Positions 16,058 to 32,288 of a DNA stretch of 36,987 nucleotides are shown here, one piece after another. Under the pieces are notes generated by a model that saw only the letters and a list, made by a program, of their open reading frames with translations, did no database searches and had not been told where the DNA came from. Numbering within the stretch: position 1 is the stretch's first letter; the number at the start of each line of letters is the position of its first letter. Location: contig MFKJ01000010.1 of assembly GCA_001779535.1 (NCBI GenBank), forward strand, positions 1-36,987. The letters are read 5' to 3'. The translations under genes were made by a program, and so were the position numbers. This DNA is from Candidatus Jorgensenbacteria bacterium RIFCSPHIGHO2_02_FULL_45_20. GTDB lineage: Bacteria > Patescibacteriota > Minisyncoccia > UBA6257 > GWB1-50-10.

Positions 16058-16187
16058 CCGTAGCTTCAGTGTAGGTTTTGGAATTTTGGAATTTGAACAT
16101 TTGGATTTATTTAGGGTTTAGGGTTTGGTGCTTAGAGTTTTGTTATCAGAGTTTTATTCGAAATTCAAAATTCGTAATTCGAAATTT
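16058..16187. repeat. Intergenic mosaic repeat, the clearest heptanucleotide-periodic array (16 heptads, 16074-16185)
   Basis: GGTTTTG GAATTTT GGAATTT GAACATT TGGATTT ATTTAGG GTTTAGG GTTTGGT GCTTAGA GTTTTGT TATCAGA GTTTTAT TCGAAAT TCAAAAT TCGTAAT TCGAAAT. Paralogous to 701-784 and 30941-31007. Confidence 0.8.
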
Positions 16188-26035: not shown

Positions 26036-26115
26036 AAATATTATTTTACCATCATTATATACAAATTTATAATCCCCGCATTACACCTGATTACGCATAT
26101 ATGAATTGCTCTCAA

Positions 26116-26197
26116 GCTCTAAATCCTAATATCTAATCCGCCTGACCGGCGGACTAAACAAATCTTAATGTTCAAATTCCAAAATTCAAAACCCGTC
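26116..26197. repeat. Inverted-orientation copy of the GGTTTTGAATTTTGGAATTTGAACATT...TTAGATATTAGG module, carrying the TCCGCC-N5-GGCGGA palindrome
   Basis: The reverse complement aligns with 30940-30980 plus 31012-31060. Confidence 0.75.
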
Positions 26198-28243: not shown

Positions 28244-28894
28244 TTATACCTCAACTCGACCGATTATTTTTTCTATCCTCGATCTCGATATACCGCCAGC
28301 GCGAATTATTTTCGGCGGCTGTCCGGTAAAATCAATCACGGTTGACGGAACTCCGACTTTTGACTTCCCGCCGTCTAAAACAAGCGGGACTTTTCCGTTC
28401 AACTCTTTTACAACCGACAAAGCGGAGGTTGCTTCCTTGTTACTGCCGGATATGTTTGCCGAAGTCGCCGCAATCGGCCCTCCAAACTCTTTTATCAGGG
28501 CGCGCGCGATTTTTGAGTCCGGCATCCTTATTCCTATCGTATTTTTCCCGCCCGTCAAAATATCGGAAAATTCTTTTTTCTTTTTTAAAATCACCGTCAA
28601 CGCCCCGGGGAAAAATTCATCAATGAGAACCCTCGCGCTTTTTGGTATCGTAACCGCGATTCTTTTAACATCACTATCGTTACAGACAAGAATACTCACG
28701 GGTTTGTCCGCGCGCCTGTTTTTAGCGCGAAAAAGTTTTCGAACCGCCCGCGCGTTAAACGGGTCGGCTCCTAACCCGTAAACGGTCTCTGTCGGAAAAG
28801 CGACAATTTCCCCGCGCCTCATAATATCCGCCGCCAATTTTATTATTTTCCTTTCCGGATTTTTTGGATTTACTTTTATTATTTCGGTTAACAT
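28244..28894 (-). CDS. tsaC: L-threonylcarbamoyladenylate synthase (TsaC/YrdC/Sua5 family)
   Basis: 216 aa. VAFPTETVYGLGADPFN and SANISG. Confidence 0.85.
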   Translation of the reverse strand: MLTEIIKVNPKNPERKIIKLAADIMRRGEIVAFPTETVYGLGADPFNARAVRKLFRAKNRRADKPVSILVCNDSDVKRIAVTIPKSARVLIDEFFPGALTVILKKKKEFSDILTGGKNTIGIRMPDSKIARALIKEFGGPIAATSANISGSNKEATSALSVVKELNGKVPLVLDGGKSKVGVPSTVIDFTGQPPKIIRAGGISRSRIEKIIGRVEV

Positions 28895-29024: not shown

Positions 29025-29074
29025 GTTCGTTTTGGTTATGGATTCATTAAAAATTGAAAATTTCAAATTATTTC
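29025..29074. repeat. Copy of the GTTCGTTTTGGTTATGGATTCATTAAAAATTGAAAATTTCAAATT module
   Basis: Identical over about 45 nt to 26225-26269. Abuts the stop codon of the 569-aa gene. Confidence 0.8.
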
Positions 29075-30783
29075 TATGCCGTTTCTCTCGCGTAACATCC
29101 GTTGCAATAAATTATCGGAGCGTTTTTTTCCGTGAGTGTCGTTTTGAAAGAAACCCCGCATTTCGCGCATTTTCTTTCGACTGTCTGGCAATAATTTATA
29201 TCCTCAATCCATCTGTGGACTTTTTCCATAATTCTGCACATCGGGCACTCGCGGGGAATAGGCAAATTCATTTTTTTTAAAAACGATAGTTCCGTCTCAA
29301 TAATCCTGTATCCTTTGCCGCAAGCCGAACATTCTATGACTTCTTTCAAGATTGATTCTCCCGTGTCTTTTATATGGTCGGGCAACTCATTCGCCTTTTT
29401 TGTTATATCGTATGTTCTTTTCTCTTTTTCTGTCCATATAAATCCTTCTTTTTCCGCCGCCTCTTTTGTCTTCGGGAAAAACAAACTCGCGAATGAATCG
29501 TTATACGGGAAACCGGTGAATTCGGGCGGGAAAAGCTCCCCGTATTTATAAACATTTCCCTTTTTGTCGGTGTATGGCATATCGTCCATATACTTTATTA
29601 TCTTCTCTCTTAAAAAACGGTATTCGCTCTCGCTGTACCTCTTATTCAGAACGCAAAACTCCCCTTTCTTCACGGACACGCATCCAAAATGATTTTTTCC
29701 TCCGGTTGACGCCCGGCAATATTCGGCGCTTATTAGATTTATTCCAGATTCATCACAAAATTTTATATCAGAGACATTTTCCCCAATATTAACCGAATCA
29801 CAACACCTCGCCATATTATTCCCCCAGCTTGCTATGTCGTAAGAATCTTTTGTCGGATTGTCCGCTATAAGAAACAAATATTTACCGTCTTCCGCAAAAG
29901 ACGTTTCAAAACATTCTTTTATGTTTTTTGAATTGAAAATATAATTTCCCGTCGAATTGACGCAAAACTTATCATAAATTCCCTTGTAAAAACTTTTTGC
30001 GTTGCAACTACGCGCTTTTTTCTTTATTTCTTGATATTTTGAATAAGAACCGATATCTATTTCGCTTATTTTTCTGAAATATTCTTCTTTCGACAATTGT
30101 TCATCAAAATAGACGTATTTTTTGTTTTTTATGTTTGTTGACGCGAAACAGTTTTGACACCCAGAAATATCACGGGAGAAAAAACATTCAAGGGATTCTG
30201 TTGCGTGGTCGGTTCCAACGCATCTATTACTCTGAAATGTATGAATGGAATCATAACAAAGTTCAGAATCGGCGGTTAAGGAACAATCGAAAATGTCTTT
30301 ATTCCCTATGCTATAAAAACCATAAGAGCAATTTTCTCCCCTGTCGCCGTGAAAAATCAGATAGCAGTTTTTCAAGTTACCTGTATGGTTTGTATATGGA
30401 GAACTTTTTGTTGTAGGAATATCTATTGACAAAGATATAATCGGGACATTGTGCAAAAGTTCATTGAACTGCTCAAAAAATGGTCTTGAGAAATCGTAAC
30501 CCCGCCCGTATTCAAACGCATCCCAATTATCGCTCCACCAGCATTTCGGACAATACACTTTATACGGCGCATCCGGAGAATATCGCGAAATCACGCTTTT
30601 CTTACATAAATCGCAATCGCGTTTATAAAGATTGAAAAAATTCAAAAACGACAATCTTCTCTCAAGCCGGCATCTCGGACAAAACGTCGGCAGCGGCACT
30701 TCTATCTTCCTATAGAAATCAAAGTCCTCGCTTTCTATCGTGTAGTTTTGCTTGCAATTCTGACACTGTTTTGATTCTTGCAT
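29074..30783 (-). CDS. Cysteine-rich protein (569 aa). Double zinc-ribbon modules at both termini flank a Cys-ladder repeat core. Function unknown.
   Basis: Long uninterrupted ORF with an ATG start. Eight CxxC pairs, four N-terminal and four C-terminal. The terminal modules are homologous to each other. Confidence 0.75.
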   Translation of the reverse strand: MQESKQCQNCKQNYTIESEDFDFYRKIEVPLPTFCPRCRLERRLSFLNFFNLYKRDCDLCKKSVISRYSPDAPYKVYCPKCWWSDNWDAFEYGRGYDFSRPFFEQFNELLHNVPIISLSIDIPTTKSSPYTNHTGNLKNCYLIFHGDRGENCSYGFYSIGNKDIFDCSLTADSELCYDSIHTFQSNRCVGTDHATESLECFFSRDISGCQNCFASTNIKNKKYVYFDEQLSKEEYFRKISEIDIGSYSKYQEIKKKARSCNAKSFYKGIYDKFCVNSTGNYIFNSKNIKECFETSFAEDGKYLFLIADNPTKDSYDIASWGNNMARCCDSVNIGENVSDIKFCDESGINLISAEYCRASTGGKNHFGCVSVKKGEFCVLNKRYSESEYRFLREKIIKYMDDMPYTDKKGNVYKYGELFPPEFTGFPYNDSFASLFFPKTKEAAEKEGFIWTEKEKRTYDITKKANELPDHIKDTGESILKEVIECSACGKGYRIIETELSFLKKMNLPIPRECPMCRIMEKVHRWIEDINYCQTVERKCAKCGVSFKTTLTEKNAPIIYCNGCYARETA

Positions 30784-30818: not shown

Positions 30819-30846
30819 CGGATTTACGCGGACAAATTCGGTTTCA

Positions 30847-31110
30847 AGTTCTAAATCCTAATCTCTAAACTCTAAACAATATCAATACCCAAAATTCAAA
30901 ATATAAAACATTTTGCCTACCGCACCGTGTCTTTAGTGCGGGTTTTGAATTTTGGATTTTGAACATTTGAATTTGTTTAGGATTTAGATATTAGGGTTTA
31001 GGATTTTATTTGGATTTGTTTAGTCCACCGGTCAGGCGGATTAGATATTAGGGTTTAGGATTTTATCTTGTGTGCAATACTTTCTACTTTACAAACTTTA
31101 TGGACTTTAT
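30847..31110. repeat. Composite repeat. A long imperfect inverted repeat (arms 30847-30902 and 30941-31007) is followed by a duplicated heptad module with a GC palindrome and an ACTTT-type heptad tail.
   Basis: The left arm matches the reverse complement of the right arm at about 45 of 53 aligned positions, with one 8-nt indel. GATT(T)AGATATTAGGGTTTAGGATTTT occurs twice (30981-31007 and 31038-31067). Confidence 0.75.
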
Positions 31111-32288
31111 ACTATTCCATATCTGCTTATTATACCCAAAAATTCACTCTTAAACTCTTTGTATTTTCCTTCCTTTATCGCCTTTCTTATCTTACACATA
31201 AGGTTATTAAAAAAGAAAACGTTGTGGATTGTGGCCAATTTCCCGGCGCGACGGTCTTTTAATTTGAACATTTTTCGCAGTTCCCCGCGCGATATTCGAG
31301 ACGAACACGCTTCGCACGAACATTCCATTTCGAGCGGCTCGGTTGAATTCACATATCCCGATTTTTTTAGATCTATTCTTCCATCACGAGTCCACAAAGC
31401 GCCGTGCCGCGCTTCGCGCGTAGGCACAACGCAGTCAAAGGTATCCACGCCCGCGTCCACCCCCTTAAACACATCCCTAACTGTCCCTATGCCGAGAAGA
31501 TGGCGCGGCTTCTGTTCGGGAAGCAAGTCGTTCACGGCCGCGACCATACCACCCATTCCGTTCTCGCCGAAAGAACCGCCTATGCCGAAACCATCAAACG
31601 GAAGCGAACCGATGAATTTTGCGCTCTCCGCGCGTAAATCGGAAAACACTCCGCCTTGCACTATTCCGTAAAGCATCTGGCTCGCGTTCGTCTTTTTTGA
31701 AAGGCAAACCTCCGCCCACCTGTGCGTACGATTCATCGCTTTTTTTGTGTATTCGTAATCGCTCCATGGAGAAGTGCACTCGTCAAACGCGAACATTATA
31801 TCCGCGCCGAGGCGTTCCTGGATTTTCATTGATTCCTCCGGTCCTAAAAAACGTTCGTCGCGACCATCCGTGAAAAACGCGCCATTTTCCGTAACGCGCA
31901 CAAGATTTTCTTGAGACGCGGCGGCTCGCGGAAAATCCGCAGTGCGCAAAATTCCCACCTTGCCGGTATTATGTTCCCTGCCGAACCCAAAGCTGAACAC
32001 CTGGAATCCGCCGCTGTCCGTCATAATAATGCTCCCTGGCATATCTATCCGCGCCGGCAATCCTTCAAACGAATTAAGTGAATCACCAAGCTCGCGCCAC
32101 AAGTGATACGTGTTCGCTATAATAAGCCGCGTTCCCGCGCGTTCCGCTTCACGCGCGTCAATACACCGCACCTCGGCGTTCGTGCCAACAATCGCGTAAG
32201 CCGGCGTCTCAAGTTTTTTGCCGGATTTAGTTTCCAAAACACCCGCGCGGGCGCGCGAATCGCTGTCTTTGTGCGTTATACAAAACAT
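31107..32288 (-). CDS. tgt: tRNA-guanine transglycosylase (queuine/preQ1 tRNA-ribosyltransferase)
   Basis: 393 aa. TDSGGFQVFS, FDEC, LLGIG, DTFDCVVPTREARHG, and zinc site CSCEAC...H. Confidence 0.9.
   Translation of the reverse strand: MFCITHKDSDSRARAGVLETKSGKKLETPAYAIVGTNAEVRCIDAREAERAGTRLIIANTYHLWRELGDSLNSFEGLPARIDMPGSIIMTDSGGFQVFSFGFGREHNTGKVGILRTADFPRAAASQENLVRVTENGAFFTDGRDERFLGPEESMKIQERLGADIMFAFDECTSPWSDYEYTKKAMNRTHRWAEVCLSKKTNASQMLYGIVQGGVFSDLRAESAKFIGSLPFDGFGIGGSFGENGMGGMVAAVNDLLPEQKPRHLLGIGTVRDVFKGVDAGVDTFDCVVPTREARHGALWTRDGRIDLKKSGYVNSTEPLEMECSCEACSSRISRGELRKMFKLKDRRAGKLATIHNVFFFNNLMCKIRKAIKEGKYKEFKSEFLGIISRYGIV

Follow-up and report, generated by a model that had tools for sequence, protein, structure and literature searches.

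A widespread family of CPR proteins with paired zinc modules around a repeat core, and its possible link to VirD4-like ATPases

In canonical systems, substrates are recruited by coupling proteins of the VirD4/TraG/TrwB type, the T4CPs (PMC12102498). Patescibacteria encode VirD4-type homologues in large numbers, with 5,713 of them in 2,918 genomes and only 148 located near virB4, and a 2025 survey leaves their role open (PMC12102498). The proteins treated here also come close to the Pfam fingers zf_Tbcl (PF13451) and zf_Tbcl_2 (PF23477), which are uncharacterised and classed as "probable treble clef". Neither family has a known function, and no mention of them was found in the literature searched.

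The gene described here is located in the window, that is, the whole stretch of 36,987 nucleotides that was analysed. The open reading frame agrees with that given in the preliminary description, and its features are listed in Table 1. The product is a soluble cytoplasmic protein of approximately 66 kDa, with a Cys content of 6.0%. As claimed earlier, there is no TM segment (the 19-residue Kyte-Doolittle mean peaks at 0.72); the N-terminus is hydrophilic and carries no signal peptide, and the reading of a cytoplasmic location is borne out. In brief, the protein consists of a double zinc module, a solenoid-like half A with a 12-residue repeat, a half B, a linker and another double zinc module. 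The architecture proposed in the preliminary description, two homologous double zinc modules around a periodic, Cys-rich repeat core, is correct.

Table 1. Features of the window gene and its product (positions are those of the window)
Feature	Residues	Position	Strand	Basis or detail
Window gene, complete	569 aa + stop	29074..30783	minus	ORF list, ATG start
N-terminal double zinc module	1-95	30499..30783	minus	Clade-invariant Cys, predicted structure
N module, finger 1	C7/C10 + C35/C38			Followed by basic helix (CPxCRxxRR)
N module, finger 2	C57/C60 + C78/C81			
Conserved WWSDxWD...FFEQF segment and core half A	96-245	30049..30498	minus	Lag-12 autocorrelation, homology to half B
Helical insert and core half B	246-400	29584..30048	minus	HHalign to half A, superfamily conservation
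Conserved linker	401-477	29353..29583	minus	Conservation in 236 paralogues
C-terminal double zinc module	478-569	29077..29352	minus	Cys conservation, homology to N module
C module, finger 1	C485/C488 + C513/C516			CPxCR517
C module, finger 2	C539/C542 + C560/C563			

The protein had been regarded as an orphan. This is refuted: its superfamily extends across the CPR and has thousands of members. We found at least 4,351 homologues, and also 4,415 clusters at 50% identity, 1,850 of these at E <= 1e-30; all are from CPR lineages and all are unnamed. One JGI source labels a homologue "Zn ribbon nucleic-acid-binding protein". The identical protein is found on 15 contigs, full-length homologues are 51-69% identical, and the protein is a member of clade F*, the most conserved clade of the superfamily.

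It was also stated that no characterised family could be assigned, and our sequence, profile and fold searches agree. Searches of Pfam, NCBIfam, PADLOC and PHROGs with the window protein gave only sub-threshold matches to the LIM, RNHCP, LysW and Lar fingers, and one marginal match to a PHROG without an assigned function. No curated family in Pfam or NCBIfam covers the superfamily. Against PDB sequences, neither the window protein alone nor a profile of 120 sequences matched anything but LIM-like fingers (E >= 0.001). The structure model has a pLDDT of 88.1 and a pTM of 0.90. Foldseek searches of the PDB with two models gave no fold match (best E 1.8 and 1.3), and against BFVD only generic zinc-ribbon matches were obtained (best E 0.009). 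No relative was found on the viral contigs searched, and no viral or mobile-element association was found. Literature searches covering zf_Tbcl/PF13451, tandem zinc-ribbon families of Parcubacteria and cysteine-rich paralogues of the CPR gave no paper on the superfamily. Neither of the outcomes named beforehand as refuting, a match to a characterised family or a lack of homologues together with poor coding, was obtained, as homologues are many and no characterised family matches. A solved structure would likely define a new repeat fold.

The two zinc modules are homologous to each other (HHalign 98.9%, E 3e-17, 81 columns). The eight CxxC pairs claimed for them are confirmed, and all 16 of their Cys show full or almost full conservation among 46 clade members (98% for C563, 100% for the other 15). 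The earlier estimate of approximately four Zn sites is upheld by these pairs, which we suggest would hold four structural Zn ions. In the predicted structure, the N module forms a hairpin (E3-6/E13-16) and two helices, 18-26 and 36-45, at a pLDDT of 93-96; C7xxC10 lies on the hairpin and C35xxC38 opens helix 36-45. Finger 1 of the C module is predicted to follow the same plan, with helix 514-528. In 236 paralogues the Cys of N-module finger 1 are 97-98% conserved, and across paralogues those of C-module finger 2 reach 99-100%.

The modules are basic, with a pI of 8.4-8.6, and the helix that follows the second CxxC is rich in conserved Arg (R39, R42 and R43 in at least 93% of 236 paralogues, R517 in 100%). 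Together with the treble-clef-like predicted topology of finger 1 and the name given by the JGI source, this would fit a stand-alone nucleic-acid binder, in which the zinc modules, one at each end of a rigid spacer, would take hold of DNA or RNA and the paralogues would differ in their targets. We consider such a binder unlikely. No significant match to a characterised nucleic-acid-binding family or structure was found, half A is acidic (pI 5.0), and the second fingers are LIM-like, a type that usually serves protein-protein contacts.

The idea of a role in tRNA modification is a variant of this alternative and stems from the flanking genes, which are as claimed: one encodes TGT (353 bits) and the other Sua5/YrdC/TsaC (197 bits). 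A recurrent linkage was not found; tgt is present at two and tsaC at two of 82 loci, never adjacent to the family gene. Linkage to tgt, tsaC and gpsA was rejected as non-recurrent among the 82 loci. Locus L066 shares only local synteny. Since the tgt/tsaC neighbourhood is not conserved, the implied link to tRNA modification is without support.

The gene had been said to have its own promoter-like sequence, but this is not supported, and the 323-bp upstream spacer contains no sigma-70-like site on the gene strand. The counts from the promoter scan are at chance level, with 8 found and 6.9 expected, and the terminator scan was likewise at chance level. The repeats reported in the spacers are real but not gene-specific; they belong to a dispersed intergenic repeat with further copies at approximately 717-783, 16081-16121 and 26112-26195. 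With Rfam, the spacers matched "miRNA precursor" entries only below threshold, reflecting a long hairpin. Horizontal transfer as the cause of the low GC was mostly rejected, since low GC is family-wide (90% of loci). It should be noted that the window copy has a GC3 deficit of 10 points, above what is usual for the family.

The repeat core is an internal duplication, with half A aligning to half B over 111 columns (HHalign 95.7%, E 1e-8). This duplication was overlooked in the preliminary description. Half A (pLDDT 71-80) consists of approximately eight rungs of 12 residues each, forming a Cys/Ser ladder at positions 128, 140, 152, 164, 176, 200 and 212, with a lag-12 autocorrelation of 0.74. 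The first AF2 model places beta-bridges at 152, 164, 176, 188, 200, 212 and 224, i.e. every 12 residues. The C-terminal part of half A reads Y-x-IFNK-x-YSKEEY and is followed by a helix. The repeat of half B is less regular, 12-13 residues. Its conserved residues are FGC366-368, N380 and Y383, and it ends with ILNKRYSxxEY and helix 385-401. Half A also contains a ninth conserved CxxC, C209/C212, likewise overlooked earlier, and C368 and C377 of half B are conserved in the superfamily.

The linker carries the motifs MPY...YKYGEFFP...YNE and LPDHIKD and has a pLDDT of 93-98. In 236 paralogues G415 is 100% conserved and E416, F417, P419, Y427 and N428 at least 91%. The residues conserved across paralogues are mainly aromatic or structural, and no His is among them. 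Entropy is 1.5-2.0 bits in the termini and the linker, compared with 2.25-2.6 bits in the rungs, i.e. the rungs are more variable.

Of the Cys ladder described earlier, the periodicity stands. Most of the ladder Cys are not conserved; they have frequencies of 0.3-0.9 in the clade and paralogue alignments, and the replacements are Ser, Ala and Gly. The ladder thus looks structural, a matter of small residues and not a set of conserved ligands. Based on the periodicity and the Cys/Ser exchange, we suggest that the ladder points inward within a narrow repeat core and would not bind metal.

The same exchange bears on the view that the protein is a thiol-rich metal or redox buffer, a kind of solenoid "metallothionein" whose Cys-lined core would take up metal ions or switch between the thiol and disulfide states. 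The Cys content of the window protein, the 33-45 Cys and CxxCxxCxxC runs of distant members, and the conservation of C209xxC212, C368 and C377 are in line with such a buffer. Free replacement of most ladder Cys is unlike the behaviour of ligands, and the window copy itself has Ser, Thr or Ile at 173, 179, 182, 185, 197, 206 and 215, positions that are often Cys elsewhere. Recurrent neighbours are CutA1, at 13 loci, M17 metallopeptidase, at 7, and DnaJ, which could suggest a role in metal or redox handling, but these are common housekeeping genes. We regard a buffer of this kind as highly improbable.

Still less credible, in our opinion to the point of being barely worth entertaining, is an enzyme whose catalytic domain would resemble a beta-helix and act, for example, on glycans or the cell envelope. 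The homologue at locus L005 sits within a glycosyltransferase cluster, a context that does not recur. The acidic residues D85, E150, D166, D316 and E416 are conserved, but there is neither a conserved His nor a recognisable catalytic triad or dyad, and no enzyme family was matched by sequence or fold. To our knowledge, 12-residue rungs are also too narrow compared with known catalytic beta-helices.

Members of the superfamily are uniform in length and typically encoded in co-directional tandem arrays of old paralogues. Two or more copies are present at 55 of 82 loci, with a maximum of 10 within 22 kb, and individual MAGs encode no fewer than 7-11 copies. Identity within arrays has a median of 39% and a maximum of 60%, which rules out a recent lineage-specific expansion of the arrays; reciprocal best matches across genomes are 50-69% identical. 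CPR/Patescibacteria genomes are smaller than approximately 1 Mb, and in many of them 7-11 or more copies of this gene of 1.7 kb take up approximately 2-3% of the genome. Keeping so many copies in tiny genomes implies an important lineage-specific function. The window copy, from the most conserved clade, is solitary.

In Parcubacteria, the arrays recur together with genes for VirD4-like ATPases. With gene calls that are crude (longest ORFs) and neighbour labels from BLAST to single representatives, a VirD4-like gene is found in 30 of 79 family-anchored loci, at a median distance of 228 bp, and the array is often bracketed by two such genes. By our own estimate, from approximately two VirD4-type homologues per genome of approximately 1 Mb, co-occurrence by chance within +-10 kb would be about 4-6%. 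In the reverse direction, 47 metagenome loci with a length of at least 9 kb were anchored on the ATPase, and 26 of these contain family genes; among close ATPase relatives the figure is approximately 36 of 56. Family genes are almost absent next to a divergent VirD4-like clade. The ATPase matches themselves are weak, at 34-48 bits. Two wider contexts are seen, SecF-Sig4HTH-Mem465-Mem179-VirD4-CutA-F(n)-VirD4 and DnaK-VirD4long-F-VirD4short-DnaJ, where F is the family gene. The adjacency of family gene and ATPase persists across both although they differ, and we count this in favour of a link.

The long form of the ATPase has a genuine zf_Tbcl_2 finger, which scores 44 bits at a cutoff of 27. 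HHalign matches this finger to the second fingers of the family at 91% (N module) and 90% (C module), with E of approximately 1e-6. A finger type shared in this way may support docking of the family proteins to the ATPase. Neither a VirD4-like gene nor genes for Mem465, Mem179 or CutA are found in the window. Distant CPR lineages are represented by two loci, L163 and L164, labelled Peregrinibacteria and Gracilibacteria, respectively; both have arrays, and no such partner was found up to 10 kb on either side. The link to the ATPase is therefore specific to one lineage, Parcubacteria, and could be frozen synteny.

Based on the architecture and the gene neighbourhood in Parcubacteria, the best explanation we can offer, tentatively, is that the family proteins are non-enzymatic, Zn-stabilised binding scaffolds that act as adaptors to VirD4-like ATPases. 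A scaffold is preferred over an enzyme because no catalytic motif is conserved, bearing in mind that a missing recognisable motif does not exclude an enzyme. In brief, the conserved termini and linker would form a common chassis, and the variable surfaces of the rungs would give each paralogue its own partner. The proteins would work with hexameric, T4CP-like ATPases of the VirD4/TraG type, docking through the zinc fingers of the type common to the long form. The ATPase would be anchored in the membrane through Mem465 and Mem179, and the adaptors would offer it clients, either protein or nucleic acid. The window copy would then be a solitary copy detached from the cluster of ATPase and array. 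In conjugation, VirD4-type ATPases are DNA-dependent motors, and for this reason the nucleic-acid binder discussed above can overlap with the adaptor.

The same neighbourhood could be read differently, with the family proteins as the cargo. As effectors or building blocks, they would be passed by the VirD4-like ATPases to an export route, destined for the cell surface or for the host of these presumed episymbionts. Multi-copy tandem repertoires next to coupling-protein-type ATPases would fit, as would the dedicated membrane partners of the ATPase; Mem465 and VirD4-short each match one half of a single phage family, phrog_5156. However, T4SS-type transport needs unfolding, which four zinc sites and a rigid core would oppose. 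The paralogues are of old origin and keep 50-69% identity between genera, whereas effectors in an arms race should diversify fast. The paralogues lack a signal peptide, and no association with viruses or mobile elements was found. Recruitment of substrates by T4CPs in canonical systems speaks for export (PMC12102498), but most Patescibacteria T4CPs lie away from virB4. We find export as cargo distinctly unlikely.

If the adaptor reading is correct, the link to the ATPase gives a candidate partner for the thousands of Patescibacteria coupling-protein homologues that are without a type IV secretion channel. We also put forward, as a rather doubtful extension, that the Cys/Ser-lined core with its twin zinc caps is a new fold and that the arrays, with 10 or more old paralogues, serve client recognition in a VirD4-type ATPase machine that has been exapted, works independently of VirB4 and is exclusive to the CPR. 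If true, this would explain the purpose of the "orphan" coupling-protein homologues, of which Patescibacteria have thousands.

Compared with known systems, the proposed arrangement resembles the T4CPs in that a membrane-anchored ATPase is paired with soluble partner proteins, and at many loci in Parcubacteria the family genes adjoin the VirD4-like ATPases and often sit between them. It differs in that no relaxase is found among the recurrent neighbour families and that the ATPase is absent from the window, L163 and L164. The core recalls the insect antifreeze beta-helix of the Tenebrio type (AFP, PF02420), with 12-residue coils and an in-register ladder of Cys and small residues, and one paralogue has a faint precomputed AFP match. 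In contrast to the antifreeze proteins, the family has no Thr-Cys-Thr ice-binding face (the TCT motif is absent from the window protein), the exchange of ladder Cys for Ser means that there is no obligatory disulfide ladder, and the window protein is cytoplasmic. The window protein has no Pfam match to this family, and Foldseek with two models gave no PDB beta-helix match.

The C-terminal finger of the window protein (CxxC-x17-CxxC, residues 538-567) can be aligned to CRP LIM fingers among the PDB sequences (E 0.001-0.02). The match to LIM (PF00412) reaches 13.6 bits, below the cutoff of 22.9, covers profile positions 28-57 of 58, half a domain, and is probably generic zinc-finger similarity. 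Sub-threshold matches to zf_Tbcl occur in 19 of 46 clade members (best E 3e-4) and to zf_Tbcl_2 in 11 of 46 (best E 9e-4); the window protein matches neither at E <= 10, and no clade member reaches the curated Pfam cutoffs. The family fingers share with these two Pfam families a set of two CxxC pairs with a helix after the second; for finger 1 of both modules, the predicted order is knuckle, hairpin and helix. Unlike in the Pfam families, the fingers are arranged in two duplicated double modules around a repeat core of 370 residues.

The gene for the 569-aa protein lies where the preliminary description had placed it, between tgt and tsaC (see table), and nearly all genes in the window share one strand. 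The tgt/tsaC context is not conserved, as tgt and tsaC are each found near the family in only 2 of 82 loci, and the lead to tRNA modification is not supported. In 90% of loci the family genes have a lower GC content than the genes around them (mean -3.3 points), and the deficit of the window copy is more extreme than this norm (0.384 vs 0.473). Its GC3 is ~10 points under that of its neighbours (0.41 vs 0.51), a gap larger than the family-typical -2.5 points and not accounted for by amino-acid composition alone.

We did not find the proposed promoter: the 323-bp upstream spacer has no sigma-70-like site on the gene's strand, with counts at chance level. The repeats said to fill the spacers are real, but they are not specific to the gene. 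The unit is a dispersed repeat that recurs at three other intergenic sites in the window. In the upstream spacer the repeats fold as a strongly structured ~160 nt hairpin (MFE -61.7 kcal/mol, z -7.2), surrounding a GC stem and T-run that could act as terminator of tgt. This copy also holds a perfect 26-nt direct repeat.

Features of the window and of loci from other genomes or metagenomes (L-numbers)
Feature	Position	Strand or context	Basis or remark
569-aa family gene	29074..30783	minus	ORF list, ATG start
TGT gene	31107..32288	flanks family gene	353 bits
Sua5/YrdC/TsaC gene	28244..28894	flanks family gene	197 bits
Dispersed intergenic repeat	30846-31066; also ~717-783, 16081-16121, 26112-26195		units TTTAGGATTT / TAAACCCTAA-like
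26-nt direct repeat	30984-31009 and 31041-31066	upstream repeat copy	perfect
Conserved Cys outliers of core	residues 209-215 and 366-377, ~nt 30139-30159 and 29653-29688		paralogue conservation
VirD4-short and Mem465	L024:6485-7966 and L020:6410-7807		halves of phrog_5156 (function unknown)
VirD4-long(zf_Tbcl_2) > F (family gene) > VirD4-short	L092, L095, L097, L101-L106, L112, L125	dnaK/dnaJ insertion	metagenome loci
TrmB-family regulator	L163:16851-17606 and L164:5821-6579	inside or beside array	

The protein is no orphan: it is a member of a large and so far undescribed CPR superfamily. Among 5.8 billion proteins there are at least 4,351 homologues. When 1.84 billion cluster representatives were searched exhaustively with a profile, 4,415 clusters matched at E <= 1e-3, of which 1,850 reached E <= 1e-30; with few exceptions they share one architecture and a length of 545-600 aa. 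The best 120 homologues are all full length (~565-570 aa), 51-69% identical and from Patescibacteria MAGs; none has an informative name. At least 588 stretches of species-representative genomes encode a relative. Among the 80 listed, all are labelled Patescibacteria or unclassified except a 5.4-kb 'Bdellovibrionales' contig (L064), and divergent members carry the labels Gracilibacteria and Peregrinibacteria. No viral contigs encoding a family member were found.

The superfamily is without known relatives by sequence or fold, in line with the earlier failure to assign the protein to a characterised family. Searches of the window protein against Pfam, NCBIfam, PADLOC and PHROGs gave nothing significant. 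The weak signals that recur are limited to sub-threshold matches to uncharacterised treble-clef fingers, zf_Tbcl in 19 and zf_Tbcl_2 in 11 of the 46 members, and to a LIM-like second finger. Neither the first AlphaFold model (pLDDT 80.8) nor the second, from 120 diverse sequences (pLDDT 88.1, pTM 0.90; core 71-79), had PDB fold neighbours (best E 1.8 and 1.3), and a BFVD fold search gave generic zinc-ribbon matches only. Literature searches turned up nothing on the family or on zf_Tbcl.

Both terminal modules and their eight CxxC pairs were described correctly. All 16 Cys are fully or almost fully conserved (C563 98%) in an alignment of 46 full-length homologues, and profile-profile comparison matches the N module (1-95) to the C module (478-569) at 98.9% (E 3e-17, 81 columns). 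Four structural zinc sites are predicted. The core is also duplicated internally, half A (96-245) matching half B (246-400) at 95.7% (E 1e-8), and each half closes with Y-x-I(F/L)NK-x-YSxEEY and a subsequent helix. The periodicity of the reported cysteine ladder is confirmed: half A has a lag-12 autocorrelation of 0.74, with Cys/Ser at 128/140/152/164/176/200/212 and a second register at 173/185/197/209, and the first model shows isolated beta-bridges at 152/164/176/188/200/212/224. Its nature as a Cys ladder is not, since most of these Cys (frequency 0.3-0.9) are exchanged for Ser, Ala or Gly. Such exchange agrees with small residues that pack into a narrow repeat, probably facing inward, and not with metal ligands. 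Exceptions conserved across paralogues are C209xxC212, a ninth CxxC (87-97%), and C368/C377 (85-97%), which might make up a fifth metal site. The window protein has 6% Cys and a pI of ~7; that the family is a thiol-rich metal or redox buffer appears improbable to us. In the distant L163 and L164 paralogues some of the terminal fingers have been lost, and the core has more Cys; each protein has 33-45 Cys, including stretches like CxxCxxCxxCxxC.

Entropy is 1.5-2.0 bits in the termini and linker and 2.25-2.6 bits on the rung surfaces; a conserved chassis thus seems to bear more variable rungs. Conserved residues are for the most part aromatic or structural and none is His, which points to a non-enzymatic protein, and we regard an enzyme as very improbable.

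Family HMM searches on crude ORF calls showed two or more copies in 55 of the 82 loci, in arrays of up to 10 co-directional copies in 22 kb with short or absent spacers; the window has one copy only. Counting just two loci per MAG, a single MAG already has at least 7-11 copies. Within arrays the median identity is 39% (range 28-60%), while several paralogues have reciprocal best hits in other genomes at 50-69%. Based on these identities, the arrays are ancient subfamily sets, not recent bursts. The window's clade, the most conserved one, usually has one copy per array. In L034, L044 and L045 the secY (spc) ribosomal operon has family genes, this clade among them, inserted near its end, with adk/amino-acid kinase on one side and map on the other. 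The Peregrinibacteria-labelled L163 has at least 10 copies and L164 has 3. L164 is labelled Gracilibacteria, yet has archaeal-type PurP (DUF1246/DUF1297) genes, and its label may be wrong.

One neighbour recurs, a P-loop ATPase (~490 aa) that matches TrwB_AAD_bind, T4SS-DNA_transf, TraG-D_C and DUF87 over Pfam cutoffs. Such VirD4-like ATPases occur in 30 of 79 family loci, and their median distance to a family gene is 228 bp. At least 11 loci share the order SecF > sigma-r4/HARE-HTH protein > Mem465 > Mem179 > VirD4-short > (CutA) > array > VirD4-long, where Mem465 (465 aa) and Mem179 are membrane proteins. Mem465 and VirD4-short match the N- and C-terminal halves, respectively, of one phage family, phrog_5156, and so form one membrane-anchored unit, a split form of a membrane-anchored ATPase also carried by phages. 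VirD4-long carries a true zf_Tbcl_2 finger (44 bits), which 47 of 145 VirD4-like proteins possess and whose homologue in the family modules is their second finger (HHalign 90-91%, E ~1e-6).

Reciprocally, among 80 metagenome loci anchored on the ATPase, family genes were found in 26 of the 47 of at least 9 kb and in ~36 of 56 loci of close ATPase relatives; in a divergent ATPase clade they are almost absent (one locus, L145). A second, independent context is the insertion of the unit VirD4-long > F > VirD4-short between dnaK (792 bits) and dnaJ, a hint that the unit is expressed together with the Hsp70 chaperones. A divergent PaaX-like regulator lies upstream of dnaK in these loci. None of the partners (VirD4-like ATPases, Mem465, Mem179, CutA) is present in the window, nor at L163 and L164, which have the TrmB-family regulator instead. 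The VirD4 link is thus specific to Parcubacteria and could partly be inherited synteny.

We tentatively suggest a zinc-stabilised binding scaffold whose paralogues would serve VirD4-like ATPases as adaptors, docking through the common finger type. A stand-alone nucleic-acid binding protein, as first proposed, is unlikely; the conserved basic CRxxRR helix favours it, and it is compatible with a DNA-motor partner. Export of the family proteins as cargo is more doubtful still. The N-terminus of the window protein is hydrophilic, and its Kyte-Doolittle 19-residue mean peaks at 0.72, so the claimed absence of a transmembrane segment stands. Apart from orphan status, promoter and ladder nature, the preliminary description is largely correct. 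The adaptor function is inferred for a family that combines an unusual array organisation with a plausible, testable partner, the VirD4-like ATPase. A 2025 survey (PMC12102498), which did not settle the role of VirD4-type homologues in Patescibacteria, counted 5,713 of them across 2,918 genomes, with no more than 148 close to virB4.
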